Source: a virus (lineage: Duplodnaviria > Caudoviricetes). Taken from it: a DNA stretch of 64,000 nucleotides. The notes below the pieces were generated by a model. That model made no database searches. It was not told the DNA's origin and saw only the letters and a list, made by a program, of their open reading frames with translations. Position numbers and translations under genes: made by a program. The stretch spans positions 64,001-128,000 of IMG/VR virus record IMGVR_UViG_3300028048_000040. One strand, written 5' to 3'. Of this stretch, positions 46,153-64,000 are shown piece after piece (within the stretch, counting starts at the first letter, position 1; every line of letters starts with the position of its first letter).

Positions 46153-47133
46153 ATGAAAAATAAAGGACTATATGCTATAGTCTTTGCTGTATTGGTTGCT
46201 ATATTTGGATATGCTGGTTATCAGGTATCCCAAGATCAACCTATACCAGTTATTCAGCAAACTGAACAGAAAACTATTCAAGTTAAGCATGAATCTGGTA
46301 TAACAGAAGTTAAAGTAAATCCACAGAGAATTGTAGTATTAGACTTTGGTATATTAGATACATTGGATACGCTTGGAGTAGAACCAGAAATGATTGCTAC
46401 TGCCAAACAGTATACTCCAAAATATCTATCTAAATATACGGGAGATAATGTTCAAGATGTAGGTCATCTTAAAGAACCTTCTCTTGAAAAACTAGCAGAA
46501 CTAAAACCAGATCTGATTATCATGTCTGGTAGACAGCGTCCATATTATGATAAACTTGCTGAGATAGCACCAACTATCAATTTATCTGTTGCAAATGAAG
46601 GATATCTTGATGCTCTTCATCAGCAGATGACTATTCTTGGTCAAATCTTCCAGAAAGAAGAGAAAGCAGAACAAGAATTTCAATCTCTTAAATCTGAAAT
46701 TCTGAAAACCAGAGAACAAGCTCAAGCATCTGGTAAGAAATCCCTTATGCTGATTACTGTTGGTAATAAGCTTAATGCTTATGGACCTGGTATGAGATTT
46801 GGTTTCTTATATGATGAATCTTCTCTTCATCTTCCTACTGTAATGGAAAAATCTGATTCTATCGGTGTTCAGTCTCCTGGTGGCAAAGTAATCTCTTATG
46901 AGTATATTAAAGAGAAAGACCCAGACTATATCATGATTATTGATCGTAATGCTGCTACTAATCAGGGTGGTGTAACAGCAAAAGATCTATTAGATGTAGA
47001 TATCATTAAATCTACTAAAGCATATAAGAATGATAAAATTATATATGTAACTCCAGATTTGTGGTATCTGGCCAATAATGGATATACTGGTACTTTGTTG
47101 ATGCTTAGAGAGATTCAGGATGCTATTAAGTAA
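46153..47133 (+). CDS. Iron-siderophore ABC transporter substrate-binding protein (YclQ/CeuE-like)
   Basis: NPQRIVVLDFGILDTL, VGHLKEPSLE, KPDLIIMSGRQ, SYEYIKEKDPD, WYLA. Confidence 0.92.
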   Translation: MKNKGLYAIVFAVLVAIFGYAGYQVSQDQPIPVIQQTEQKTIQVKHESGITEVKVNPQRIVVLDFGILDTLDTLGVEPEMIATAKQYTPKYLSKYTGDNVQDVGHLKEPSLEKLAELKPDLIIMSGRQRPYYDKLAEIAPTINLSVANEGYLDALHQQMTILGQIFQKEEKAEQEFQSLKSEILKTREQAQASGKKSLMLITVGNKLNAYGPGMRFGFLYDESSLHLPTVMEKSDSIGVQSPGGKVISYEYIKEKDPDYIMIIDRNAATNQGGVTAKDLLDVDIIKSTKAYKNDKIIYVTPDLWYLANNGYTGTLLMLREIQDAIK

Positions 47134-47148
47134 GGTAAAGGTGAGAAC

Positions 47149-48333
47149 ATGAATAAAAAATTAATTGCCTTGAGTGTAGGTCTAGCCTTTTCTATGAATT
47201 CTTCTATAGTATTAGCTTCTAATGAAGATAAGAAGATTGATGAAGCTGCTGCTAAGTTAACTGAAGAACCAGCTAAAGAAATGGCTCAAGAGGTAAAACC
47301 ACTTACTACAGAAGAAAGAATTGCTCAGTTAGAAAAAGAAATCCAAGAACTTAAAGAAGCTAATCTTAATAATAATAAAGAGATAAAGAAAACCAATGAT
47401 AAGATTAAGAAAGAAGACGAAAGACTTCATTTCTTTGCTACTGGTCAGGTTGCTTTATCTGGAGCTAAAGAAGAAGGAAAAGAATTCGAAGATACTGGTT
47501 CCGCATTGAAATTAAATTTTGGTGCTAGAGCTAAGCTTAATGACAATTGGACTTTCTCTTGGCTTACTAAGTCTTCTCAGGCTTTTAGAAATACTGGAGA
47601 TAGAGGTACTCAGAATACTACAAATATTTATCTAAGTGGTAAAGATCTTCTCACTAAAGGAGATAGTCTTACTTTTGGTAAATATAGAAATGATGAGCTG
47701 TCTTTGCAGCAAGTTGGTAAATCAGAACAGACTGGTCTTAAATATACCATTCCTTTTGGTAAAGAGAAAGATACTTCTCTTACATTAATAGCTGGTAGAC
47801 TTGGTACTGGTAAACCATCAACTTTCTTAAACCCAGTAATTGCCAATGCATCTGATAATGCTAATTATAGAGCTGCTATTATTCAGCATAACTTTGGTCA
47901 TACTAAAGTAGCTTTAGCTTATCGCAGAGCATCTGCTATGAATGCTGTCAATGGTTATGAATTATATACTCAATTCCCAATTTCTGGTAAATTGAGTGGT
48001 AGATATTCATACTATAAAACAGATGCTGATGATACTGGAACTACTGGTAATGCTGGTCAGTATGCTGCACTGTATTGGGGTGAATTTAAACGTGGTACAG
48101 CTCATAGTGCAGACTGGTATATCAAATTCTATCACTCTCCTAAATATTCTATGATTGATGGTGAAAATCCAAAATATGCAGATTATAATATCTGGAAGAT
48201 TGGTGGTACTTGGTCATTCACTAAGAATATTTGGTTAGAATATAATTACTCTATCTTTAATAGAATGGGTGGAGCTTCTAATAAGCTGACTAATAAACAG
48301 ACTGTGGGTGCTACACTTAAATTCTCTATTTAA
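47149..48333 (+). CDS. Exported porin-like beta-barrel protein with an N-terminal coiled coil
   Basis: Signal peptide; RIAQLEKEIQELK coiled coil; alternating beta strands; C-terminal GATLKFSI. Confidence 0.65.
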   Translation: MNKKLIALSVGLAFSMNSSIVLASNEDKKIDEAAAKLTEEPAKEMAQEVKPLTTEERIAQLEKEIQELKEANLNNNKEIKKTNDKIKKEDERLHFFATGQVALSGAKEEGKEFEDTGSALKLNFGARAKLNDNWTFSWLTKSSQAFRNTGDRGTQNTTNIYLSGKDLLTKGDSLTFGKYRNDELSLQQVGKSEQTGLKYTIPFGKEKDTSLTLIAGRLGTGKPSTFLNPVIANASDNANYRAAIIQHNFGHTKVALAYRRASAMNAVNGYELYTQFPISGKLSGRYSYYKTDADDTGTTGNAGQYAALYWGEFKRGTAHSADWYIKFYHSPKYSMIDGENPKYADYNIWKIGGTWSFTKNIWLEYNYSIFNRMGGASNKLTNKQTVGATLKFSI

Positions 48334-48339
48334 TTATAG

Positions 48340-48368
48340 ACCCTCTACCTCTATAGAGGTAGAGGGGT
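48340..48368 (+). terminator. Intra-operon hairpin
   Basis: CCCTCTACCTC-TATA-GAGGTAGAGGG. Confidence 0.65.
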
Positions 48369-48387
48369 TATTAAAGAAGGTGATTAT

Positions 48388-49311
48388 GTGAATAAAAAAA
48401 TGATGTCGTCACTTGTTTTATTAGCATCTTTATCTATTCTATCTATATTTATAGGAGTACATGATTTTACATATGAGATATTGATAGAAAGTAGAATACC
48501 TAGACTAATGGCTGTACTTCTTACTGGTGTAGGAATGGGCATAGCTGGTTTGATAATGATGCAAATATCTCAAAACAAATTTGCTTCTCCATCTACTACT
48601 GGTACAATAGAGTGTGCTGGTTTAGGAATAATATTATGTACTGCATTTCTACCAGAGACTAAGATATTTTATAAACTGTTTATCATCTTTGGTATGGCTA
48701 TGATAGGTACTAAGATATTTACAACTATTTTAGATAGAATAGTATTTAAAGATACTATGTTTATACCATTGATAGGTATCATGTATGGTCATATCATATC
48801 TGCAATAACTACAATGATAGCATATGATCAAAACCTACTCCAAGAACTTAGTATTTGGTTTGCTGGTGATTTCTCTGCTATTCTACATGGAAAATATGAA
48901 TTACTATATGCAATTATACCTGCAGTAATAGTTGCTTATATATATGCTAATGCTTTAACTATTATAGGATTTGGTCAAGATTTCTCTGAGAATCTTGGGT
49001 TATCTTATAATAAGATTAAAAATATAGGTTTGTTTATAGTTGCTTTCTTAGTAGCTTCTATAGTAACAGTAGTAGGACAAATACCATTCATAGGATTGAT
49101 CATACCAAATATCATCACTCTTATTAATGGAGACAATATAAAATCTAATCTACCATATATAGCAATCTATGGAGCTATATATGTATTGATTTGTGATATA
49201 CTAAGTAGAATACTGATATTCCCATATGAATTATCTGTATCTCTAATATCTGGTCTATTTGGTAGTATAATCTTTATGTATCTAATCTTAAGGGGGAAGA
49301 ACAATGCATGA
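48388..49311 (+). CDS. FecCD-family iron ABC permease (YclN/CeuB-like)
   Basis: SRIPRL, QNKFASPST, VGQIPFIGLIIPN, CDILSR. Confidence 0.92.
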   Translation: MNKKMMSSLVLLASLSILSIFIGVHDFTYEILIESRIPRLMAVLLTGVGMGIAGLIMMQISQNKFASPSTTGTIECAGLGIILCTAFLPETKIFYKLFIIFGMAMIGTKIFTTILDRIVFKDTMFIPLIGIMYGHIISAITTMIAYDQNLLQELSIWFAGDFSAILHGKYELLYAIIPAVIVAYIYANALTIIGFGQDFSENLGLSYNKIKNIGLFIVAFLVASIVTVVGQIPFIGLIIPNIITLINGDNIKSNLPYIAIYGAIYVLICDILSRILIFPYELSVSLISGLFGSIIFMYLILRGKNNA

Positions 49312-50266
49312 TTTTAAAACCATTTTCTATACCTCTATAGTTTTAGTTATTTCGACTTCTTTATTCTTCTTCTATGATCTTAAAGAGTCTATCTATGTAT
49401 ATTCTCTTAATATGAGATTAGGTCAAATGATTGGTATTCTATTAATAGGATATGCTATAGCTATTTCTTCAGTATTATTTCAATCTATTACTAATAATAA
49501 AATTCTTACTCCATCTATATTAGGATTCAATTCTCTATATCTGATGATTCAATCTCTAGTAATATGGTTATTTAGTGATACTAAGCCAAATTTCTGGTCT
49601 GTAAATGAATTCTTTGCATTTAGTGTAATATTAATGATAGGATTCAGCTTTATACTGTATAAACTACTATTCAAATCTTCAGTAAAGAATATATACTTTA
49701 TTCTATTAGCAGGAGTTGTATGTGGTACTGTATTTAGTTCTATATCTTCATTTATTAATAGACTTATAGAAACAGATAGATTTCAACTATTTCAGCTTAA
49801 AGCATATGCTAACTTTGACTTAATTCAATCTAATCTATTACCAATATCAATAGTACTAATTCTGTTATGCTCGTATATTGTGTATAGAAAGATACCTGAA
49901 TTAGATGTATATCTGATTGGTTCAGATAATGCTAAGATGTTAGGAATTGATATAGATAGACTACAGATTGTATCTCTTTGTGTTATATCTGTAATGGTAT
50001 CTATATCTACAGTATTAGTTGGTCCTATTACATTCTTAGGATTAATAGTGTCTAATATAGCATATACTCTTCTTAGAAGTTATTCTCTTAGATATATATT
50101 CCCACTATCTATTATATTATCATGGATTATTTTATCTATAGGATTGATTATTACTCAAAGAATAGCAACATTTGATCTTAATCTTACTATGTTGATAAAT
50201 GCATTTGGTGGAATATACTTTATCTATTTATTGATATGGGGGTCTTCTAATGATAAGAATAAGTAA
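49304..50266 (+). CDS. FecCD-family iron ABC permease (YclO/CeuC-like)
   Basis: FQSITNNKILTPSILG, LVGPITFLGL, GGIYFIYLL. Confidence 0.92.
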   Translation: MHDFKTIFYTSIVLVISTSLFFFYDLKESIYVYSLNMRLGQMIGILLIGYAIAISSVLFQSITNNKILTPSILGFNSLYLMIQSLVIWLFSDTKPNFWSVNEFFAFSVILMIGFSFILYKLLFKSSVKNIYFILLAGVVCGTVFSSISSFINRLIETDRFQLFQLKAYANFDLIQSNLLPISIVLILLCSYIVYRKIPELDVYLIGSDNAKMLGIDIDRLQIVSLCVISVMVSISTVLVGPITFLGLIVSNIAYTLLRSYSLRYIFPLSIILSWIILSIGLIITQRIATFDLNLTMLINAFGGIYFIYLLIWGSSNDKNK

Positions 50267-51005
50267 TGTTACTAAAGCGTATAAGAATAATCTAGTATTG
50301 GACAGTGTATCTGTTTCTATTCCTAATTCTAAATTTGTATCTCTTATTGGTCCTAATGGATGTGGTAAGTCTACTCTTATAAATTGTATATGTAGTCTTA
50401 TAGACTATGATGGTCATATATTTATAGATGAAGTTCCTATTAAATCTATTCCTAAAAAAGAACTAGCAAAGAAAATATCTCTTCTTAAACAAAATTCATT
50501 TCATGATCTAAAGATCACTTCTAAAGAATTAATATCTTTTGGTAGATTTCCATATTCTAATGGTAATCTTACTAAAGAAGATGATAAGAAGATAGAAGAA
50601 GTTATACAGTTCTTAGAATTAGATTCATTACAATCTAAATATATCACTGAACTATCTGGCGGAGAAAGACAAAGAGTTTATATAGGAATGATGTTAGCTC
50701 AAGATACAGAATATATGATATTAGATGAGCCACTAAATAATCTAGATATGAAGAATTCTAAACACATTATGTCTCTATTAAAGAAATTTGTAGAAGAGAA
50801 GAAGAAAACAGTCATATTAGTAGTACATGACATAAACTTCGCTTCTATGTATTCAGATGAGATAATAGCAATTAAAGATCATGATATCTTTGCTAGTGGT
50901 AAAACTAAAGCTATAATCAATGAAGATGTGCTTACTTCTATTTATGATACACCTATTAGAGTAACTAATACAGATATAGGTATATTGTGTAACTTTTATA
51001 AATAA
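50250..51005 (+). CDS. Iron ABC transporter ATP-binding protein (YclP/CeuD-like)
   Basis: GPNGCGKST, FGRFPYS, LSGGERQR, LDEPLNNLD, HDINFA. Confidence 0.95.
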   Translation: MIRISNVTKAYKNNLVLDSVSVSIPNSKFVSLIGPNGCGKSTLINCICSLIDYDGHIFIDEVPIKSIPKKELAKKISLLKQNSFHDLKITSKELISFGRFPYSNGNLTKEDDKKIEEVIQFLELDSLQSKYITELSGGERQRVYIGMMLAQDTEYMILDEPLNNLDMKNSKHIMSLLKKFVEEKKKTVILVVHDINFASMYSDEIIAIKDHDIFASGKTKAIINEDVLTSIYDTPIRVTNTDIGILCNFYK

Positions 51006-54922: not shown

Positions 54923-55522
54923 ATGAGAGAAGTAGACTTAACAGAACTGATGGATAATGCATATGCTTCTAAGTGGAACTTAGAACGAAAAGCAGCAGCT
55001 AATGGAAGAGATGTACAAATCTTCTTACATTGGACTGCTTGTCCTTATGGTAGATATTATCCTGGTTATCATGTTAATATTGATGATGATGGTACTATAA
55101 TTTTAACTGCTGATTTAGATGAGACTCTATCTCATACATATATGAGAAACTCTGGTTCTATTGGATTGACTCTATGTTGTTGCTATAATGCTACTACTGA
55201 CGATCCTGGTCCTCAACCACCTACACAAATACAGATTGAAACTATGGCTAAATGTATTGCAGTATTATCGGAAGCATTAGATATTCCTATAGATAAACAA
55301 CATGTACTTACTCATGGTGAAATTGCTGATTGTGAAGATGGATCACCAATCTATTTTGATGGTAAATACGGCCCAAAAACAGATTGCCAACGCTGGGATT
55401 TGGAGGTCTTATGGACAGATGAATCCCCTGTATTTAATCCTTATGATGAAGAACATAGGGGTGGAACTATATTACGTGGAAAAGGCAATTTCTATAAATA
55501 TAAATTCTATGGTCATTACTAA
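54923..55522 (+). CDS. N-acetylmuramoyl-L-alanine amidase (Amidase_2-like), candidate endolysin
   Basis: FLHWTA, YHVNIDDDG, SHTYMRNSGSIG, VLTHGE. Confidence 0.8.
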   Translation: MREVDLTELMDNAYASKWNLERKAAANGRDVQIFLHWTACPYGRYYPGYHVNIDDDGTIILTADLDETLSHTYMRNSGSIGLTLCCCYNATTDDPGPQPPTQIQIETMAKCIAVLSEALDIPIDKQHVLTHGEIADCEDGSPIYFDGKYGPKTDCQRWDLEVLWTDESPVFNPYDEEHRGGTILRGKGNFYKYKFYGHY

Positions 55523-55557
55523 AATTACCAGGATAGCTCATATGAGCTATCCTATTG

Positions 55558-56172
55558 TTATAAAGAATATGAAATAACTGGAAAAAATCCCTGATATGCT
55601 GAACCATAATTTTTAACAGCACCATTTTTATCTAGACATATACCATTTTTTTTAGGATAATATATATAACTATTGCTATCATTTCCATTATAATTATAAG
55701 ATCTGCCAATTTCAGTATATATTCTAATCTCTGTTTCATTAGTATGATTATCTTGATATGATACTGAATATGCCATGCTATTACTATATCTATAAGAATA
55801 TTCTGAAATGAATCCATTTATTGTTGAGCCACGATTTGACAGATATCGCATCGTTGCTAATCTATTAATTTTAGTCTTAGTCCCATGAAGCCTTATATAT
55901 TCTGAGCGTAATATAAACCATTTATTATTATGGAATGCATTTGAGGGATAATTTTCCTTTTTATTATCCCATAATTTATCAGCGTTCCAAGGAATAATTA
56001 CTTTAAATATAGCTTCATCTACACTAATTAGTCTTATTTTAGTATTGGGAGTTCTATTATTTTCAATTCTTTTATTAAAGCTTTCATTTATATCTCTTTT
56101 AGTTATATTAAACTTAGACTGCAATTGGTCTAGCAGCCTAAGTGCCTCTTCCTTAGTAGTAGGTTCATTCAT
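55558..56172 (-). CDS. Palindrome-associated paralogue 1, putative C-type-lectin-fold (DUF6273-like) protein
   Basis: RLISVDEA...WFILRS...GFFPVI; GGAGG RBS. Confidence 0.65.
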   Translation of the reverse strand: MNEPTTKEEALRLLDQLQSKFNITKRDINESFNKRIENNRTPNTKIRLISVDEAIFKVIIPWNADKLWDNKKENYPSNAFHNNKWFILRSEYIRLHGTKTKINRLATMRYLSNRGSTINGFISEYSYRYSNSMAYSVSYQDNHTNETEIRIYTEIGRSYNYNGNDSNSYIYYPKKNGICLDKNGAVKNYGSAYQGFFPVISYSL

Positions 56173-56198
56173 TTATATCTCCTCCAATAAATTGTTTC

Positions 56199-56232
56199 TA
56201 CTTAGTTAAGTGGACATCCACTTAACTAAGTA
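56199..56232. repeat. Palindrome copy 1: 16-bp arms, core CA on plus strand
   Basis: TACTTAGTTAAGTGGA-CA-TCCACTTAACTAAGTA. Confidence 0.97.
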
Positions 56233-56299
56233 AATAGATTGTTTTGATTAAAGATAGATATTAATAATAAATCTTCCTAGGGGATTATTCCCCTAGGAA

Positions 56300-56947
56300 T
56301 TATACTTTAAAACATGGTACAAATGTAAGAATTTGTTGAAAATGTAGTGTGTGAGATTTATAGTTATATGATATTACATTTGTTATCTCATTTAAATAAG
56401 ATGATTTATTTGAAGATGATGGTTCTATCATAGTACCTTCCCTACCTCCAACCCATGTTATATAATAAGTAAAAATTAGTGTTCCATTTATAATATTATT
56501 ATTATTAGATGAATTTTGCACAAGCAATCTACTAAATTTCCAATAAGTATTACCGCTAGCATTTGGTTCTGGTTTCTTTAAATTTTGAGAAATATCATTA
56601 TAATAATTTGTCTGGTATCCTGGTTTATTATAATTTGTTGTATTAATATCACCACAAGTTGGTATTATTGTATTATCAATGTTGTTACCATTTTTTTTAA
56701 TTGATAATTGTCCACCATAATAATATCTAGTACCTATTATATTATTTAACGTATCGTTTAACATATATTTTTTATATTTATTATTAGCTTCATTCCACAC
56801 TAGACAACATATAGTCTGTTTGTCTGATTTGTCAGTCAAATTAAAATCAGATCCAGCTTGTAAGTAATCCCCATTTTTTATTCCAAAAGATTTAGCTAAT
56901 GAAGTCATTAATTGTAAAGCTTCATCTTTATTTTTAGGATCATTCAT
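56300..56947 (-). CDS. Palindrome-associated paralogue 2
   Basis: N-terminus resembles paralogue 1 (MN.P..K.EAL.L); TICCLV..EA and TLHFQQ..TFVPCFK shared with paralogue 3. Confidence 0.75.
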   Translation of the reverse strand: MNDPKNKDEALQLMTSLAKSFGIKNGDYLQAGSDFNLTDKSDKQTICCLVWNEANNKYKKYMLNDTLNNIIGTRYYYGGQLSIKKNGNNIDNTIIPTCGDINTTNYNKPGYQTNYYNDISQNLKKPEPNASGNTYWKFSRLLVQNSSNNNNIINGTLIFTYYITWVGGREGTMIEPSSSNKSSYLNEITNVISYNYKSHTLHFQQILTFVPCFKV

Positions 56948-56972
56948 TTACAGTTCCTCCAATCAATAGATC

Positions 56973-57014
56973 TATCTACTTAGTTAAGTGGACATCCACT
57001 TAACTAAGTAGATA
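56973..57014. repeat. Palindrome copy 2: 20-bp arms, core CA on plus strand
   Basis: TATCTACTTAGTTAAGTGGA-CA-TCCACTTAACTAAGTAGATA. Confidence 0.97.
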
Positions 57015-57063
57015 ATTCAATCGAAAGAATATAGGATAGCTCATATGAGCTATCATCCTATAT

Positions 57064-57726
57064 TTAAAATTTAAAACAAGGAACAAATGTAGCTAATTGT
57101 TGAAAATGTAATGTGTAATTAATAGAAGATGAACCCCACTTTTGTGATATATCTAAAATAAATGACTGCTTATCAAATTCGCATATTTTATTTTGATTAT
57201 TAATCAAAAAAGATGCTATATCACTACCACCAGCTCTATTAAAAACAGCTTTTATAGATGATAATTGGTTGTTTACATTAAAAGAACTATTTTTAGAATC
57301 TTGGTTTATAATTCTGGTAAATTTTAGGTATGAATCACTACCAGAAATATAATTTTCACCAATACCACCATTACTATTATATACATTGTATTCTTGTGTA
57401 AATCCTGGTTTGTTTATATTATCATCTTGAACATGACCACAATTATCAATAATAGTGCCTTGAGATAAAACCTTACCATTTTGTGCATTTCTGATATAAT
57501 TGCAATTATAATAATACCACCTATTACCAGTTATAGTATTTACAGTATCATTTTTCATATATTGTTTATATTTATTATGGGCTTCATCTGATACTAGACA
57601 GCATATGGTTACTTTACTTGCATTTTCATTATTTACATTTATATTATTTTGTAATATTTCTCTATTTGTTATTCCATTTTCTTTCATCAATGATAGTATC
57701 TGATCAATGATATTTGATTTGCTCAC
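57064..57726 (-). CDS. Palindrome-associated paralogue 3
   Basis: GTG start with GGAGG RBS; clear similarity to paralogue 2. Confidence 0.75.
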   Translation of the reverse strand: MSKSNIIDQILSLMKENGITNREILQNNINVNNENASKVTICCLVSDEAHNKYKQYMKNDTVNTITGNRWYYYNCNYIRNAQNGKVLSQGTIIDNCGHVQDDNINKPGFTQEYNVYNSNGGIGENYISGSDSYLKFTRIINQDSKNSSFNVNNQLSSIKAVFNRAGGSDIASFLINNQNKICEFDKQSFILDISQKWGSSSINYTLHFQQLATFVPCFKF

Positions 57727-57754
57727 TTATACTTCCTCCAATCAAACGTAATTC

Positions 57755-57790
57755 CTACTTAGTTAAGTGGATGTCCACTTAACTAAGTAG
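57755..57790. repeat. Palindrome copy 3: 17-bp arms, core inverted (TG on plus strand)
   Basis: CTACTTAGTTAAGTGGA-TG-TCCACTTAACTAAGTAG. Confidence 0.97.
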
Positions 57791-57821
57791 ATAACTCATC
57801 GAGATATATAAAAAATAATAG

Positions 57822-57843
57822 GGGAAGCTCATATGAGCTTCCC
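57822..57843. terminator. Terminator-like hairpin insulating the palindrome cassettes
   Basis: GGGAAGCTCATATGAGCTTCCC; related AGCTCATATGAGCT hairpins at 55530-55553 and 57031-57061. Confidence 0.7.
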
Positions 57844-57870
57844 TATGTATTTATTCTTTTAGTTTATATT

Positions 57871-58236
57871 TCATTTATCCTTATCATACATTCTTACTAC
57901 TCCTTCATATACGTTCTTTACTAACTCTTCTAAATCACTTTGAGTGATATCATACATTTTAAATATTCCTGCATGTAATTTTCTAAGCAAACTTTCTGTT
58001 TGTTTTTGATCAAGCTCTTCATTAACAATATTATCTATATAGATACTATGAGCTTTTTCTTGCTCATTGACAACAGAAACAAATCTAAATACAACCTTTT
58101 TCTTTGGTGGAGTATTATTTATTGGAATCAATCCTATCTCTTCAAGATCAACTCTAGATACATAAATATTATCACTTGCCAAGAAACCACCATTATAAAT
58201 TAATCTAAATTCTTCATTGTACTTATCTTTTGACAT
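57871..58236 (-). CDS. Hypothetical protein
   Basis: ORF with RBS. Confidence 0.7.
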   Translation of the reverse strand: MSKDKYNEEFRLIYNGGFLASDNIYVSRVDLEEIGLIPINNTPPKKKVVFRFVSVVNEQEKAHSIYIDNIVNEELDQKQTESLLRKLHAGIFKMYDITQSDLEELVKNVYEGVVRMYDKDK

Positions 58237-58237
58237 T

Positions 58238-58771
58238 TTACTTCTCCTCCATATTTATATAATTATTCAAATTGAAACCAAGAGCATGAACTACATTTCT
58301 TATACTAGTTTTAAACTCATCCATCCATTCATCAGCAGTTTTTACATACTTATCATCCACCATATCATTAAATTCAAAGCAGAACAAGTCTATTATGAAT
58401 CCAGAAGTGCGTTTGATATGACCATCGCTGTAGTTTAGTTCTAAACATATATTACCATCTCCAACATATGTCAATCTAAACTCCAAACAGTCTTCATTGT
58501 ACATTTTTCTAAAAACATAACCAATCTTTTTTACATAGCCATATCCAAACTCATCTACACAAGCACTAATAGTTTCATATGTTTGACTATTGATCATATC
58601 ATGAAGAACTTCTTTAGCATCATATATATCAAATGTTTTAGTAAGTCTCATGTAAAGCTCATCTACTGCTTGCTCATCTACACCTTTAGCATAGTTGAAT
58701 AACACATCAATTTTTTGTATTTTTAGTCCTTCCATTACAAATACCCCACTTTCTATTCCTAAAGTCCCCAT
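58238..58771 (-). CDS. Hypothetical protein
   Basis: ORF track; start uncertain. Confidence 0.68.
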   Translation of the reverse strand: MGTLGIESGVFVMEGLKIQKIDVLFNYAKGVDEQAVDELYMRLTKTFDIYDAKEVLHDMINSQTYETISACVDEFGYGYVKKIGYVFRKMYNEDCLEFRLTYVGDGNICLELNYSDGHIKRTSGFIIDLFCFEFNDMVDDKYVKTADEWMDEFKTSIRNVVHALGFNLNNYINMEEK

Positions 58772-58852
58772 TCTAGCCTGAATCTGACATTAGGATTTCT
58801 TAAAAAACTCCACAGGGCAGTTGCCCTGTGGGAGTATACACACCATATCGTT

Positions 58853-59218
58853 TTAACCCTCATAATCAACGTATCTTAAATATTTTATCAGAGTTCTACC
58901 ATAATTCTTCTTTTCTGATACATGGAATATCAAATCACCATTATCACAGAAAGATACTTGAATATAGTATTGTGGAAATACCATTCTCATTACACTAAAT
59001 GGATCATCTTCTTTTGCAACCAATTCCAGTATTGTTTTACAATCTTCTAATGTAAATCCTTCTGGATAATCAAATAAGTATTTAAAATTATTGCTAAGCA
59101 TTTTAAGCATTCTCCTATTTTTTATAGGTCCCTTTATGGGTCCGTCAAGATGAAACTCTTCTCCAGTAGTTTCATTAAATAAATGATAATCATATAAAGT
59201 ATATTTAATACGTTCCAT
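58853..59218 (-). CDS. Hypothetical protein
   Basis: ORF with RBS. Confidence 0.7.
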   Translation of the reverse strand: MERIKYTLYDYHLFNETTGEEFHLDGPIKGPIKNRRMLKMLSNNFKYLFDYPEGFTLEDCKTILELVAKEDDPFSVMRMVFPQYYIQVSFCDNGDLIFHVSEKKNYGRTLIKYLRYVDYEG

Positions 59219-59222
59219 TTAT

Positions 59223-59786
59223 TTACTCCTTCTTTAACCACTGAGGATATGGGCTAAATACCTTTATAGTTTCATATTCCTCTAACTTAGTCTCCTTAGT
59301 ATTGGAATAAATGGGATCTCCATTCTCATTTGTTCCAACTATTTCAGGAGATTTAATGGTTCCACCTGGTATTATTCTTTTGATAAAAGATACATCACTC
59401 TTTTCTCTTCCTCCTAGAGACATCTTTCTTCCAGTGTGCATATAAGAATTGATAAACTCTTTAGAGAATGATATCATTGCTTTAGCATCATTAGTACTAA
59501 ATTCATAATGATCCATTATTCTCTTAGATTCACTTGGTTGAACTCCGGTAGTATTAGTAATTATACCACCTATCATTTTTCTAATCTCTTTAGATGGATT
59601 ATATACCCCTATACACCCATTCTTATTATATACTGAAACTTCATATGAGGGATCATTTAATATTCCCTTCATTACAGCAATCTCATCTTTTTGAGATCTA
59701 GTTTCATATTTTTTCCCTGTAGTAGACTCTATACGTTTCTTCTCTATCTCTTTAATGATTTCTTTTACATCTTGCAACTTCTTCAC
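59223..59786 (-). CDS. Hypothetical protein
   Basis: ORF packed in operon. Confidence 0.7.
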   Translation of the reverse strand: MKKLQDVKEIIKEIEKKRIESTTGKKYETRSQKDEIAVMKGILNDPSYEVSVYNKNGCIGVYNPSKEIRKMIGGIITNTTGVQPSESKRIMDHYEFSTNDAKAMISFSKEFINSYMHTGRKMSLGGREKSDVSFIKRIIPGGTIKSPEIVGTNENGDPIYSNTKETKLEEYETIKVFSPYPQWLKKE

Positions 59787-59788
59787 CT

Positions 59789-60034
59789 CTAATCATCAAA
59801 GAAGTATCTATACACTAATACGAATGGTAATAAGATCAAACAGAATATGAGGAACATAGAACCAAATACAACACCTAATGCTGCTAAAATAGCTCCTACT
59901 AAAACCATTGCTAATAGCTCTAGGAATAGTTTAAGACCAAAATATAAAATAGGACAAATCACAAAGATTAATAAGAGAAAGCCAGAAATGATAAGTACAT
60001 CATCCATTCTTATCGCCTGTCTTTCTCTTGTCAT
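59789..60034 (-). CDS. Small membrane protein
   Basis: Almost entirely hydrophobic. Confidence 0.65.
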   Translation of the reverse strand: MTRERQAIRMDDVLIISGFLLLIFVICPILYFGLKLFLELLAMVLVGAILAALGVVFGSMFLIFCLILLPFVLVYRYFFDD

Positions 60035-60164
60035 CTTTTGGTAGTCTTATAAAATACACTGGTGAGATTGGTTTCTTTTTGGCATTTTTTGATTCCAATA
60101 TTTCTCTTATTTGATCTCGATCCATTCGACTTATTTCTTCTAAGAATTTTGATTTACTCATCAT
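60000..60164 (-). CDS. Small basic protein, 54 aa (MMSKSKFLEE...), not in the ORF track
   Basis: GAGGGG RBS; fills a gap in the operon. Confidence 0.55.
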   Translation of the reverse strand: MMSKSKFLEEISRMDRDQIREILESKNAKKKPISPVYFIRLPKDDKRKTGDKNG

Positions 60165-60222
60165 AATTCCCCCTCATAAGCCCGAATCTGGATTATAATG
60201 TTGTCCCTCCCCTCATTATAAA

Positions 60223-60747
60223 TTACATGCAGAGTTCTTGTTTGAATAATTTTTCTTTGATTTTATCCCATAACCCTTTCTTAGTTCCATAAAGTTCAAT
60301 TACTGTACTAGAATCATCATGCACCTTTACATATCCTTCAGATTCTTTATTTGCGCATTTTATTTCTGTAGAATCTTCATCAGTAACTTTGTCTGCATAA
60401 TAAGCACAATAGACTTCATATTCTTTGAAATCATTGTATTTACTCTTTAAAACTAATACTTGATCTTTCTCATTAAGAAGTTCATTATAATCGTGATATC
60501 TACTAAAAGAAGGATTATTAGGACAATAACTACATTTAGGAGTATTCTTATCAATAATTTCTGGATTATACCATCCATAAATTTTAAGAAAGAAAGTTTG
60601 CATACTAGCTATTTTAGGACTTTCTGATGCTGCATCTGAATCTTGTATTTTCATTAATTCTTTATACAACTGCCTCACTGTCCAATAACCAGTAAATTTA
60701 ATTTTTCCTAACGGTTCCTGACCAATTCTTACCTTTACATTATTCAT
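60223..60747 (-). CDS. Hypothetical protein
   Basis: ORF with AGGAG RBS. Confidence 0.72.
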   Translation of the reverse strand: MNNVKVRIGQEPLGKIKFTGYWTVRQLYKELMKIQDSDAASESPKIASMQTFFLKIYGWYNPEIIDKNTPKCSYCPNNPSFSRYHDYNELLNEKDQVLVLKSKYNDFKEYEVYCAYYADKVTDEDSTEIKCANKESEGYVKVHDDSSTVIELYGTKKGLWDKIKEKLFKQELCM

Positions 60748-60902
60748 TTTTTCTTCTCCTTTTCTCTTTTGACTTTCGTTCTCCTCATTTGACGAAGTCT
60801 TTTTAACTTAGCTTTATAAATACCACATGTTTTACAGCAATCTTTCATTACAGTATTGCTGCATTTGACAAGTGGATTATGAGGACATTGTTCTGTTGGC
60901 AC
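60744..60902 (-). CDS. 52-aa Cys-rich basic protein (MPTEQCPHNPLVKC...CCKTC...), not in the ORF track
   Basis: GTG start with AAGGTG RBS; ATGA overlap with the next gene. Confidence 0.6.
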   Translation of the reverse strand: MPTEQCPHNPLVKCSNTVMKDCCKTCGIYKAKLKRLRQMRRTKVKREKEKKK

Positions 60903-61063
60903 TATACATCACCTTTTCTGCGTATCTCCTCTAACTCACCCTCAATAGAATAGTATATATCTAAAAAAATTTTTACTAAAAAAGAATAGAACTAGTTAAG
61001 CCTCTAGTCTATTCTTTAAGAAATATAGAAGATACTTAGAAATAAAATACTTATGCAGCCCTA

Positions 61064-61252
61064 TTAGAGAGAATAAGGCTTATTATGTCTGGCTACTAAC
61101 ATAGCCTTCATATTTTGAAAGTGAAGTTGATGTGAGTCAATTGTTGGGTATTTAATTGGCTCATTATCTTCTTCATCTTCTATAGGTTTGAACCTATAAT
61201 TATTAAGTGGGTTTTTGATATTTGGGTTTAAAGTGAATCGACTCACTTTCAT
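61064..61252 (-). CDS. Small hypothetical early protein
   Basis: ORF with RBS and a promoter at about 61316. Confidence 0.6.
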   Translation of the reverse strand: MKVSRFTLNPNIKNPLNNYRFKPIEDEEDNEPIKYPTIDSHQLHFQNMKAMLVARHNKPYSL

Positions 61253-61724
61253 TTACCTTTCCTTTCTCTAGATAGGTCAATCTATCTAGGTATTTCTTCT
61301 ATATCTCTCATAGATATAATATACAAATAAAAAAGAAAAGGTATACCAGTAGAGGATTATCCTCTACTGGTATTTTAACTGTACCTCTCTCTCACTCACC
61401 CTCAATAGAATAATATATCTCTATTTTTTAGTTTACTTATATAAAAAATAGATAGGGTGGACAAATCCCTATCTATTTTATAAAGTGGAAGTCTTTAGGG
61501 TAATATAAGAGAAAAATATCGGGAAGTATATTCCTCCCTCAGACTACCTCAATAGAATAGTATATAACTGAAATTTTGAACACTCTTCAAAAATATCATT
61601 TTATCTATTCCTTCCTCAGACTCATACTCATAGGAATGGTATATAACTAAAAAATTTTTTACTTTGCAAAAACTAGGTAGATCACATTAGAATAATCAGG
61701 AACTATTTAAGGAGGAGAAACTAA

Positions 61725-64000
61725 ATGGCTTTAATGATTGATGAACTTCATCCTCTGAAGTTATACTCTGGTAATTATTTCTATAATATCCAGAAAGAAG
61801 ATAGAAAGAAAGGATCATTAGTGTATCTAATGACTCCTAATAAACAATCTTCTATCAATGTAATAAATCATAAGTTAGGAAAGAGAAATCTTATTCTATT
61901 CCAATCTTATTTCTTAGATAGAAATATAGATTTCATTATAAATGGTAATCTAAGTGAAAGTAAGACTTACAATATCAATGATGAAGAAGTTATACCAGAA
62001 ATAGGTATAACTGAATCTCTTATGATAGATAATAGAGATGAGATATCCTTAACAGAGAATGCTCTTATATATAATGGAGAAGATTATAAAGAAAGAATAT
62101 TATTTCCAGATGATGTAGATGATATATTATCTGAAGCATCTCAGTATAAGACTAAATATGGTTCTTATAATCTTACTGCTATATTTAAGAATATGCTATA
62201 TAAGCATAGACTTAAAACAAATAAGGATGTACTAAAAATCTATGATGAAATTAAAAAATCTTGTGATCTTATAAAATTTACTTATGTAGATCCAAGATTA
62301 TATAAAGGAAGAAATCTATTCTATGATTGGTCTTATTATACAGAGATATTCTTCAAAGAGAATTCTAAGTTCCAACAAGAAAGAGGATTAGATGTATTCT
62401 TCAGTTTTATGGATAGATTTATAACTGATAGAAGATTCCCAGATTATAATATTAAGACTATAGTTATACCAGTAAATGATTGGTGTAGAGGATTAGAAGA
62501 TCCATATGATTTTAAGAAGAATATAAATCCAATCTCTCTATTCTTTAGAAGATTTAGAATGAACTTTACTCAATTTGATAATTGGAATAACCATAATATT
62601 CTCTTCTTAGGAACTAATGGATTCTTTACTATGAAATTAGATTCCTTTGATCCTAATAAGAATCTTTCTAGATTTAAGATGTGTTGTGATAAGCTTATTA
62701 GGGAAGATTATAGCGATGCGGAGGTTATTGATACTGATTCTAAGACTATGATGATGAGCTTTATTGCAGATAGATTAGCTCAAGGTGGTATAGAATTAGA
62801 CAATATATCTGGTGCTACTAAGCATTTCTCTAGAGAAGAGATTAAAGATATGGGAACAATGAAGAATCCTACTCTAGAGAAAGATAAGTCTATTAAGAAA
62901 GCTATCTTAGTACAGAAACTAGAAAAGATAGTAAATCAATCTAAAGATGCTAATGAAGTTCTTAAAAGATTTGAAGATAATGATGATAGTGAAGAGAATG
63001 AGCAATTAAAAGAACTATTGTTAGATATCCAATCTGATGATGGTGTTAAGATGAATCAGGCTAGAACTGATAGAATGCAGTTGACTAGAAAAGAGTTACT
63101 AAAGAAACAGATCAATGGCAAATCTGTAGCAGATCTTATGGATCAATTCTCTAAGAATTATGATCTTAAAGAAGCAGGAGTAGAGATAGATTCTATTGAT
63201 GAAACTTGGAAACATCTTAAGTTCCCCTCTTTCTATTCTTCTTACACTAAAGAAGATATGGAAGCAGATATAGTTGCTGTATTTAAACACTATACAACTG
63301 TAACCCATCCAATGAATATCTTAGATATCAATGTAGAGAATACTTCTACTGCTGAAGATTATGTAAATACTTGGACTGTTAAGTATGAAGATGCTGAAAC
63401 AGGCAAAAGATATACAATGGTAGTAGATATGCCTAGATTGATTGATAATCGTTTCATGATGTTAAGAGGTAATGAGAAAGTATTGATTTCTCAGTTTATG
63501 CTTATGCCTATTATCAAAACATCTGAAACTGAATGTCAGATGGTATCTAACTACAACAAGATATTCATCAGAAGAAAATCACCAACAGGTAATGGTAAAT
63601 CTACAGTTATCATTAATAAGCTTATGAGAGCTTTACTAAAGTACGATGGCAAAGATTTCAAAGTAAATACTGGTGATAATAGAAAAGTAGCATCTAGATA
63701 TGAATTACCAATAGACTTCATTGATATGACTACCACATTTGATTCCATTCAATTTAAAGATGGTTCTTATATTTCTTTCAATATGAAAACTCTATCAGAG
63801 ATTCCTATAGATAAGAAATTCTTAACTAAGGATGATGCTAAACTTACTGAAGAAGAATTGAATAGAAAGTATTTAGCAATCTATGTAAATAAAGATGGTA
63901 AGAGAGAGCCTATCTTTAATGATGGTTGTGATAAGTTTATTTTAGATAAGATAGAAGAATATGATACTTCTAAGAGATTCAAAGAGCTATATGATGTATC
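61725..64000 (+). CDS. Phage multisubunit RNA polymerase beta-like subunit with a long N-terminal extension, truncated by the window end
   Basis: ATG at 61725 with AGGAGG; in-frame DMPRLIDNRFMMLRGNEKVLISQFMLMP at about 63426 resembles the RpoB N-terminal P.MT..GTF.ING.ERV.VSQL.RSP region. Confidence 0.7.
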   Translation, partial: MALMIDELHPLKLYSGNYFYNIQKEDRKKGSLVYLMTPNKQSSINVINHKLGKRNLILFQSYFLDRNIDFIINGNLSESKTYNINDEEVIPEIGITESLMIDNRDEISLTENALIYNGEDYKERILFPDDVDDILSEASQYKTKYGSYNLTAIFKNMLYKHRLKTNKDVLKIYDEIKKSCDLIKFTYVDPRLYKGRNLFYDWSYYTEIFFKENSKFQQERGLDVFFSFMDRFITDRRFPDYNIKTIVIPVNDWCRGLEDPYDFKKNINPISLFFRRFRMNFTQFDNWNNHNILFLGTNGFFTMKLDSFDPNKNLSRFKMCCDKLIREDYSDAEVIDTDSKTMMMSFIADRLAQGGIELDNISGATKHFSREEIKDMGTMKNPTLEKDKSIKKAILVQKLEKIVNQSKDANEVLKRFEDNDDSEENEQLKELLLDIQSDDGVKMNQARTDRMQLTRKELLKKQINGKSVADLMDQFSKNYDLKEAGVEIDSIDETWKHLKFPSFYSSYTKEDMEADIVAVFKHYTTVTHPMNILDINVENTSTAEDYVNTWTVKYEDAETGKRYTMVVDMPRLIDNRFMMLRGNEKVLISQFMLMPIIKTSETECQMVSNYNKIFIRRKSPTGNGKSTVIINKLMRALLKYDGKDFKVNTGDNRKVASRYELPIDFIDMTTTFDSIQFKDGSYISFNMKTLSEIPIDKKFLTKDDAKLTEEELNRKYLAIYVNKDGKREPIFNDGCDKFILDKIEEYDTSKRFKELYDV

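Follow-up and report, generated by a model that had tools for sequence, protein, structure and literature searches.

The stretch analysed here, which we call the window, comprises 64,000 nucleotides (nt), bases 64001-128000 of a 342,328-bp virus record (IMGVR_UViG_3300028048_000040) that represents a jumbo phage with a genomic G+C content of 31.6%. It carries three minus-strand open reading frames (ORFs), g1, g2 and g3, each of which is preceded by a 34-bp palindrome with a 2-nt centre, and these two bases occur in either of two states, CA or its reverse complement TG. Comparison with metagenomic relatives indicates that the palindrome is a selected cis-element and that the flip of its centre is real, local, recurrent and fast. 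As the best single explanation, which we favour tentatively, we propose that the 2-bp flip reverses an AR9-type late promoter and thereby switches the cassettes ON and OFF.

The three cassettes share one order, in which a terminator hairpin is followed by the palindrome, a Shine-Dalgarno site and a gene of one accessory family, and their ORFs converge on an Amidase_2 endolysin at 54923-55522. Given by ascending coordinates, with protein lengths in amino acids (aa), the locus contains the following features:

55530-55553, no strand: two-way terminator-like hairpin between the endolysin and g1
55558-56172, minus strand: g1, 204 aa, the family N-terminal module joined to a C-terminal part of its own
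56199-56232, no strand: palindrome copy 1, before g1; 16-nt arms, centre 56215-56216, CA on the plus strand and TG in gene sense
56214-56225, plus strand: ACA-N6-TAA motif of copy 1, facing away from g1 and toward the hairpin at 56274-56299
56274-56299, no strand: two-way terminator-like hairpin between g2 and palindrome copy 1
56300-56947, minus strand: g2, 215 aa
56973-57014, no strand: palindrome copy 2, before g2; 20-nt arms, centre 56993-56994, CA on the plus strand and TG in gene sense
56992-57003, plus strand: ACA-N6-TAA motif of copy 2, facing away from g2 and toward the hairpin at 57031-57055
57031-57055, no strand: terminator-like hairpin between g3 and palindrome copy 2
57064-57726, minus strand: g3, 220 aa, with a GTG start
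57755-57790, no strand: palindrome copy 3, before g3; 17-nt arms, centre 57772-57773, TG on the plus strand and CA in gene sense
57763-57774, minus strand: ACA-N6-TAA motif of copy 3, on the gene strand; the only cassette of the window with a candidate late promoter facing its gene
57821-57844, no strand: two-way terminator-like hairpin at the end of the upstream early operon, ahead of palindrome copy 3

The pattern of 16-nt perfect arms around a 2-nt centre is matched exactly at 56199-56232, 56977-57010 and 57756-57789. These are the only three copies of the 34-bp palindrome in the entire genome, all of them ahead of g1-g3, and 100 shuffled sequences yielded no match. Perfect-arm palindromes centred 43-46 bp upstream of the start codons, with cores reading CA, CA and TG on the plus strand, had been described in the original prediction from the window alone; the exact matches bear this out, with distances from centre to start codon of 43.5 (g1), 46.5 (g2) and 46.5 nt (g3), and the core states can be read directly at 56215, 56993 and 57772. 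The terminator hairpins said to bound each cassette (at 55530, 56274, 57031/57035 and 57821) were likewise recovered in a terminator scan, which found 14 such hairpins in 55300-61800 against 1.7 expected; of the four at the cassettes, most scored on both strands. In every case, a hairpin lies 12-45 nt from the far side of the palindrome, where transcripts of an 'OFF' cassette would stop. The palindrome itself does not resemble an intrinsic terminator, which has a G+C-rich stem and a T-run: its stems are A+T-rich, and the scan flagged copy 3 only, with a weak tail, leaving copies 1 and 2 unflagged. The centres within the window are 778 and 779 bp apart, a near-constant spacing despite gene lengths of 648, 663 and 666 nt and hairpins of differing sequence. 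The two centres in the related contig L004 (5944 and 6723) are also 779 bp apart, while those in L017 are separated by 1,234 bp, so the spacing is not general.

The relatives are contigs from ENA, JGI and Logan assemblies, retrieved through homologues of g3 and g1, with one more from a pattern scan of metagenomes. A blastn search of the region against GenBank phages returned nothing, and IMG/VR likewise gave no result when scanned by protein and by pattern. Three contigs (L007, L009 and L011) were dropped as chance matches to the inner pattern in unrelated bacterial DNA, and L006, which is 100% identical to the window over 8.7 kb, was not counted as an independent lineage. This left 17 palindrome sites, including those of the window, with states read from consensus assemblies. 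In gene sense, the centre is CA at eight of them (window copy 3, L012, L014, L015, L016, L020, L017a and L023) and TG at nine (window copies 1 and 2, L004a, L004b, L008, L018a, L019, L022 and L017b), and no other dinucleotide occurs. The centres are therefore not fixed among related genomes, as the original prediction had anticipated. Among the 16 main-type sites, the arms diverge by 0.8% (2 of 32 columns are variable), whereas the 25 nt on each side of the palindrome differ by 29-36%. Because the arms are so much more conserved than their flanks and the centre is always CA or TG, the arms and the identity of the centre must be under strong constraint, while its orientation is free.

The remaining site, L017b, is of a second palindrome type, found in L017 and L018 ahead of a fourth family member. 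This type differs from the main one in its outer arms, which are still complementary, and keeps the inner 20-mer, TTAAGTGGA-NN-TCCACTTAA, exactly. Between the palindrome and the start codon, all main-type sites also contain a leader element, AC-NN-TT-N-ATT followed by GGAGG, which lies at 57733-57750, 56955-56972 and 56180-56195 in the window (columns ~100-118 of alignment A4) and exceeds the rest of the flanking DNA in conservation.

The flip of the centre is seen most directly between closely related contigs. Window copy 3 (CA) has colinear flanks on both sides with L004a and L008 (TG), as has L022 (TG) with L014, L015 and L020 (CA), and in both comparisons the centre is flipped. L017 and L018, which come from different samples, are identical over 4,659 bp but for the two centre bases, where the L018 contig starts inside the left arm and does not cover its left flank. 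A maximum-likelihood tree computed from 300 nt downstream requires at least four changes of state, three of which are forced by well-supported branches. We regard the flip as local and fast because of these colinear comparisons, the identity of L017 and L018 around their centres and the repeated changes on the tree. Independent double substitution as the origin of the CA/TG difference was rejected: flips are found at 0-6% divergence, yet so few arm columns vary.

Could these differences be artefacts of assembly or library preparation? The k-mers that lie wholly inside the palindrome are common to both forms, and several contigs break there. Against this, both states coexist within one assembly, that of the window, and its three states recur in a second assembly of different length, L006. 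Furthermore, contigs assembled with k=141 span the unique flanks, and both states were recovered in full-length context from different samples and with different assemblers, which makes an artefact extremely improbable.

As routes for the flip, the original prediction had named hairpin template switching and a recombinase encoded outside the window. The first agrees with what is found: with arms of 16-21 nt and a spacer of 2 nt, the palindrome falls within the range in which template switching acts (arms of at least ~10 bp and a spacer of a few bp), and the spacer is swapped for its exact reverse complement, recurrently on the tree, with arms and flanks unchanged. Template-switch inversion of spacers at perfect inverted repeats is known to be reversible and includes a 2-bp AA/TT toggle in yeast SPO75 (PMC8604942), and minute inversions of hairpin loops in chloroplast spacers have been attributed to template switching at inverted repeats (PMC2903610, PMC6824564). 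The second route did not hold for the rest of the phage genome, as neither Resolvase (PF00239) nor Phage_integrase (PF00589) was detected in six frames of its 342 kb, while control genomes were positive. The recombinase expected of an inverton, an invertible DNA element, is thus missing from the phage genome, which is what the search covered; a host enzyme could still act.

Such a host-supplied or unrecognised enzyme is the premise of one alternative, in which the palindromes are crossover sites for a serine-invertase-type recombinase that shuffles, inverts or deletes cassettes, with the centre setting the polarity. Sites of the hix/gix type are characterized by dyad symmetry and an asymmetric 2-bp centre, and a 34-bp dyad whose asymmetric 2-bp centre is of fixed identity and variable orientation has the same layout. 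Cassette number, order and orientation also vary among relatives (L010 has no cassette, L004 has two, the window three and L017 a convergent pair), and five of about 16 related contigs (L008, L013, L018, L021 and L023) end in the palindrome or at most 25 nt from it. Nevertheless, we consider this explanation quite improbable: the two recombinase families are absent from the phage, at least three flips alter the centre alone between colinear flanks, which is not an outcome of two-site recombination, and perfect palindromes commonly break assemblies anyway. The contig ends could reflect coverage loss, a hairpin-induced break of the assembly or structural heterogeneity in the population. In L013, the sequence runs into 40 nt of unrelated DNA directly after the palindrome.

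If the flip is to act as a switch, the palindrome has to be read against the promoters of the phage, which fall into two classes. The early-type class, a long A+T-rich motif built around TATACTAT and preceded by a GTAAA element, was found in 37 upstream regions in sense against 3 in antisense orientation, mostly ahead of replication-type genes, and fits the published account of early promoters in jumbo phages (PMC7598289). Four or five such promoters (GTAAA followed by TATACTAT or near variants) form an array at 60950-61650 on the minus strand:

61643, 61564, 61417, 61323 and 60957, minus strand: members of the early-type promoter array, which head the operon that ends at the terminator 57821-57844

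In agreement with the original prediction, a motif scan found no promoter of this class within the g1-g3 cassettes.

The late-type class, ACA-N6-TAA, is likewise a strand-specific upstream motif. Upstream of genes, its form ACA-N5-ATAA has 25 sense and 3 antisense occurrences, and the form ending in [CG]TAA has 9 and 1, respectively. The sites peak 25-50 nt ahead of start codons and precede tail-fibre-like genes, a virion structural protein and a head protein. The late promoter of phage AR9, which is used by its non-virion RNA polymerase, has been described as A(-11)ACA-6N-T-A/G(+1) (PMC7598289); it is read from the template strand and works on single-stranded DNA (PMC7598289, PMC5449584, PMC9209446). 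Given the sense/antisense bias, the position at 25-50 nt and the AR9-like register, the late motif that had been proposed from about 12 sites in the window is therefore real, with ~11 intergenic sites there by our count; its form needed revision, as the dominant variant has A at -2, where the palindrome has the rarer T. The phage also encodes a multisubunit RNA polymerase beta-like gene, from 61725 of the window onward. Two hairpins beyond the window, related to each other and each with a loop of 10 nt (genome positions 215370-215410, minus strand, and 223176-223217, plus strand), directly precede AACA-N6-TA/TG motifs, about 30-40 nt before ORF starts, and represent another pairing of a hairpin with a late-type motif.

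On the strand that reads CA, all three palindrome copies contain ACA-TCCACT-TAA, in which every invariant position of the AR9-type promoter is matched. The ACA lies 48 nt before the start of g3 and 43-46 nt before the start in relatives of CA state, as counted from the upstream sequences, that is, within the 25-50 nt typical of the class. The inner 20-mer thus amounts to two mirror-image ACA-N6-TAA motifs with a common 2-bp centre. This arrangement is rare: among the 158 non-AT palindromes of the genome, the C of the motif falls at the centre only in the three cassette copies and in one weak terminator, the sole case among the 155 others of such an overlap with the invariant positions of the late motif. 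Besides the palindrome, the only conserved non-coding element of the cassettes is the ribosome-binding region, and no other recognisable promoter was found in them. As only the CA-reading strand has the ACA, the centre would decide the direction of the polymerase in the switch model.

Several observations weigh against this model. The N6 of the palindrome (TCCACT) is G+C-rich and its T at -2 atypical for the late class; the TTAA form is only weakly enriched upstream of genes (6 sense versus 3 antisense sites), and leaving out the palindromes gives 5 versus 1, the counts for T at -2 in other upstream sites. On a profile of 22 columns that had the ATAA form as its seed and is biased by it, the palindrome scores -0.3 bits, where accepted sites exceed 8 bits; on the seven most conserved columns it reaches 6.3 bits, a level attained by 314 of 684,614 genome positions. 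Every cassette would be 'OFF' in L004, in L018 and in L019, which has a single cassette. The split of centre states is near 50:50, and on the tree they are hardly more clustered than shuffled labels (72 of 500 shuffles were as low), as neutral flipping would likewise predict. The uncovered left flank of L018 belongs on the same side of the balance. The claim that core orientation sets promoter direction has thus fared unevenly: the centre does invert, the motif belongs to a real AR9-type late class and the cassettes are insulated and lack another recognisable promoter, but the palindrome is an atypical match to the profile of that class.

A serious rival to the switch is a symmetric operator or activator site, at which a dimeric or tetrameric protein regulates the cassettes; it accounts for the conservation and the free orientation just as well. 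In this case, the CA/TG step would be needed for the shape of the DNA, and its frequent flips would be neutral, as a symmetric protein would read both orientations alike. The dyad symmetry is perfect, and the arms are conserved in sequence, with no compensatory change. Each arm nests a sub-palindrome, ACTTA-NN-TAAGT; the centres of the two are 20 bp apart, about two helical turns, and the genome has no further instance of this pattern. A required pyrimidine-purine step would explain why the identity of the centre is fixed and its orientation free, and both the random-looking distribution on the tree and the all-'OFF' genomes would follow. Yet we consider a protein site somewhat less likely than the switch, since the overlap with the late promoter, seen in so few other palindromes, would have to be a coincidence and the insulated cassettes would be left without a recognisable promoter. 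Moreover, no candidate binding protein was found, and the nested symmetry has a chance probability of ~0.05 by our own estimate.

As a further alternative, the palindrome may act in RNA, as a 5'-leader hairpin on read-through transcripts of the early operon, where it would stabilise the RNA, be cut by RNase III or influence translation. Predicted folds of the leaders are very stable (-50 to -54 kcal/mol, z-scores from -7.9 to -9.8), early promoters are located upstream on the same strand, and in L016, whose arms carry a single change, a G-U pair is retained in the sense RNA. This contrasts with the arm change in L019, which is an A-C mismatch in the sense RNA, and with the count of compensatory changes, which is zero across the 17 sites despite the strong divergence of the flanks. 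The loop would read ACAU or AUGU; under constraint, it should not tolerate the flip, and without constraint, other dinucleotides should have turned up. Strong terminators stand ahead of each palindrome, and Rfam yielded matches at chance level only, far under the gathering threshold. A function in RNA is therefore very improbable. Two further candidates in this context were abandoned. An extended stem that would sequester the Shine-Dalgarno site appears in folds of copies 1 and 2, but by our reading the necessary complementarity of the flanks is not kept in copy 3. Hairpins at genome positions 184850 and 184900 have 9 nt in common with the palindrome at another spacing and look like ordinary hairpins next to an early promoter.

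Under the late-promoter switch that we tentatively favour, the inner 20 bp would carry two mirror-image promoter cores with a common 2-bp centre. With CA toward the gene, the non-virion RNA polymerase would start within the palindrome and transcribe into the gene (ON), while with TG in gene sense it would start in the opposite direction, toward the nearby two-way terminator (OFF). In the state captured by the window, g3 would be ON and g1 and g2 OFF. The centre would invert without a recombinase, most likely when a replicating strand switches template within the arm hairpin; alternatively, the same product would arise from a short gene conversion in which the copies pair in inverted register. 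We further infer that, upon cruciform extrusion, the four unpaired bases of the template-strand loop would correspond to positions -10 to -7 and could offer the TGT ready-melted to AR9-type polymerases, which read the template strand in single-stranded form at -11 to -8. It is also possible, and we hold this with somewhat less confidence, that the element is a recombinase-free minimal inverton, whose frequent template-switch flips cause the progeny of a lytic jumbo phage to differ heritably in which member of a fast-evolving accessory protein family they make, a family that possibly acts in the virion or in tropism.

The proteins behind the palindromes offer few clues to such a role. The original prediction had described three paralogues, and for g2 and g3, which are 38% identical, this holds; g1 shares only its N-terminal ~55 residues with them, which indicates a common module rather than full-length paralogy. 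The g3 orthologue in L004 is 53-55% identical, and the proteins beside palindromes in relatives, homologues of g1 included, are 46-58% identical, with a ratio of nonsynonymous to synonymous substitution rates (dN/dS) of ~0.7. For g1-g3, which the original prediction had suggested to be alternative adhesins, Pfam and PHROG gave no match, a sequence search of the PDB with a 12-member family profile gave none either, and a protein atlas search returned nothing usable for the family. AlphaFold models of family proteins are of low confidence, with predicted local distance difference test (pLDDT) values of 32.5 and 38.0. No longer proteins with the N-terminal module were found, nor any further paralogues in the 342-kb genome; P0004, a protein of 1,962 aa with immunoglobulin-like repeats, was set aside as what looks like a spurious match to a repetitive protein. 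In L023, an ORF at 59-730 joins the N-terminal ~30 residues of the family, behind a CA-state palindrome, to a G+C-richer part named GNAT acetyltransferase by JGI; it may be either a chimeric contig or a genuine module swap.

Relatives with ~80-93% nucleotide identity in the surrounding DNA are hypervariable in the slot that separates the endolysin from the early operon. In L010 (5600-6000), this slot holds an unrelated 113-aa gene in place of cassettes, in L004 (5283-8110) it contains extra small genes beside the two cassettes, and in L017 (3284-5700) it holds the convergent cassette pair. The order and strand of the genes in the adjoining tail-fibre module also vary among the window, L004, L005 and L010. 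Elsewhere in the window, a single tRNA was detected, a tRNA-Arg (anticodon TCT) at 1360-1434 on the minus strand, and the late block includes a complete ATP-binding cassette (ABC) importer of the iron-siderophore/B12 type at 46153-51005 on the plus strand:

46153-47133, plus strand: periplasmic binding protein of the importer, Peripla_BP_2
48388-49311 and 49304-50266, plus strand: its two FecCD permeases
50250-51005, plus strand: its ABC ATPase

In L012 and L013, genes with matches to ABC_tran (251 aa) and FecCD (320 aa) are found two genes past the endolysin.

Parts of the proposed switch are familiar from other systems. With the template-switch inversions of yeast SPO75 and chloroplast spacers, the palindrome has in common perfect arms of more than 9 bp, a very short spacer that gives way to its exact reverse complement between unaltered arms, and a recurrent, reversible and recombinase-free pattern on the tree. 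Those cases are viewed as mutational noise or as amino-acid toggles, whereas the phage element is strongly selected ahead of genes and its flipped bases belong to the key trinucleotide of a promoter class. Like the invertons, it has inverted repeats flanking a segment whose orientation would aim a promoter, and both orientations occur in nature. Yet invertons such as E. coli fimS, Salmonella hin and the Bacteroides capsule promoters measure ~100 to 1000 bp and depend on a dedicated tyrosine or serine recombinase (PMC10403206, PMC5903667), whereas here the segment is 2 bp long, in a lytic-type jumbo phage that encodes no recombinase. The late promoters of AR9 resemble those found here in their ACA and T-A register, in their position relative to genes and in the presence of a multisubunit RNA polymerase in the phage; they differ in that -11 is not conserved here and A is preferred at -2 and +2, and no AR9 promoter has been described at the tip of a long palindrome.

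Some traits of the locus also recall the tail-fibre switches of other phages. The G segment of phage Mu and the C segment of P1 switch tail-fibre genes through serine-invertase sites (hix, gix and cix). These sites are similar to the palindrome in their dyad symmetry, in an asymmetric 2-bp centre that sets polarity and in their location next to a variable tail-fibre region. In the present phage, by contrast, there is no invertase gene and the centre alone flips, rather than a segment between two sites, and each cassette gene is a complete unit that has a ribosome-binding site of its own, instead of a swapped C-terminal exon.

Phase variation by DNA inversion is thought to require a recombinase and a segment of about a hundred bp or more, and flips of short spacers are seen as noise. 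Our literature search turned up no account of a gene switch that works by a 2-bp inversion, and tools that find invertons by read orientation would miss such elements entirely. Even if the flips are neutral, the locus provides a strongly selected palindrome that is specific to a mobile cassette family and carries a hypermutable, two-state marker at its centre. If a 2-bp flip does reverse a promoter, it would join the study of phase variation with that of spacer flips and would represent the smallest invertible control element described, a switch encoded in 20-36 bp alone. It would then also be a natural test bed for jumbo-phage non-virion RNA polymerases on structured promoter DNA, and would give a virulent phage a new route to bet-hedging over accessory or host-range proteins.

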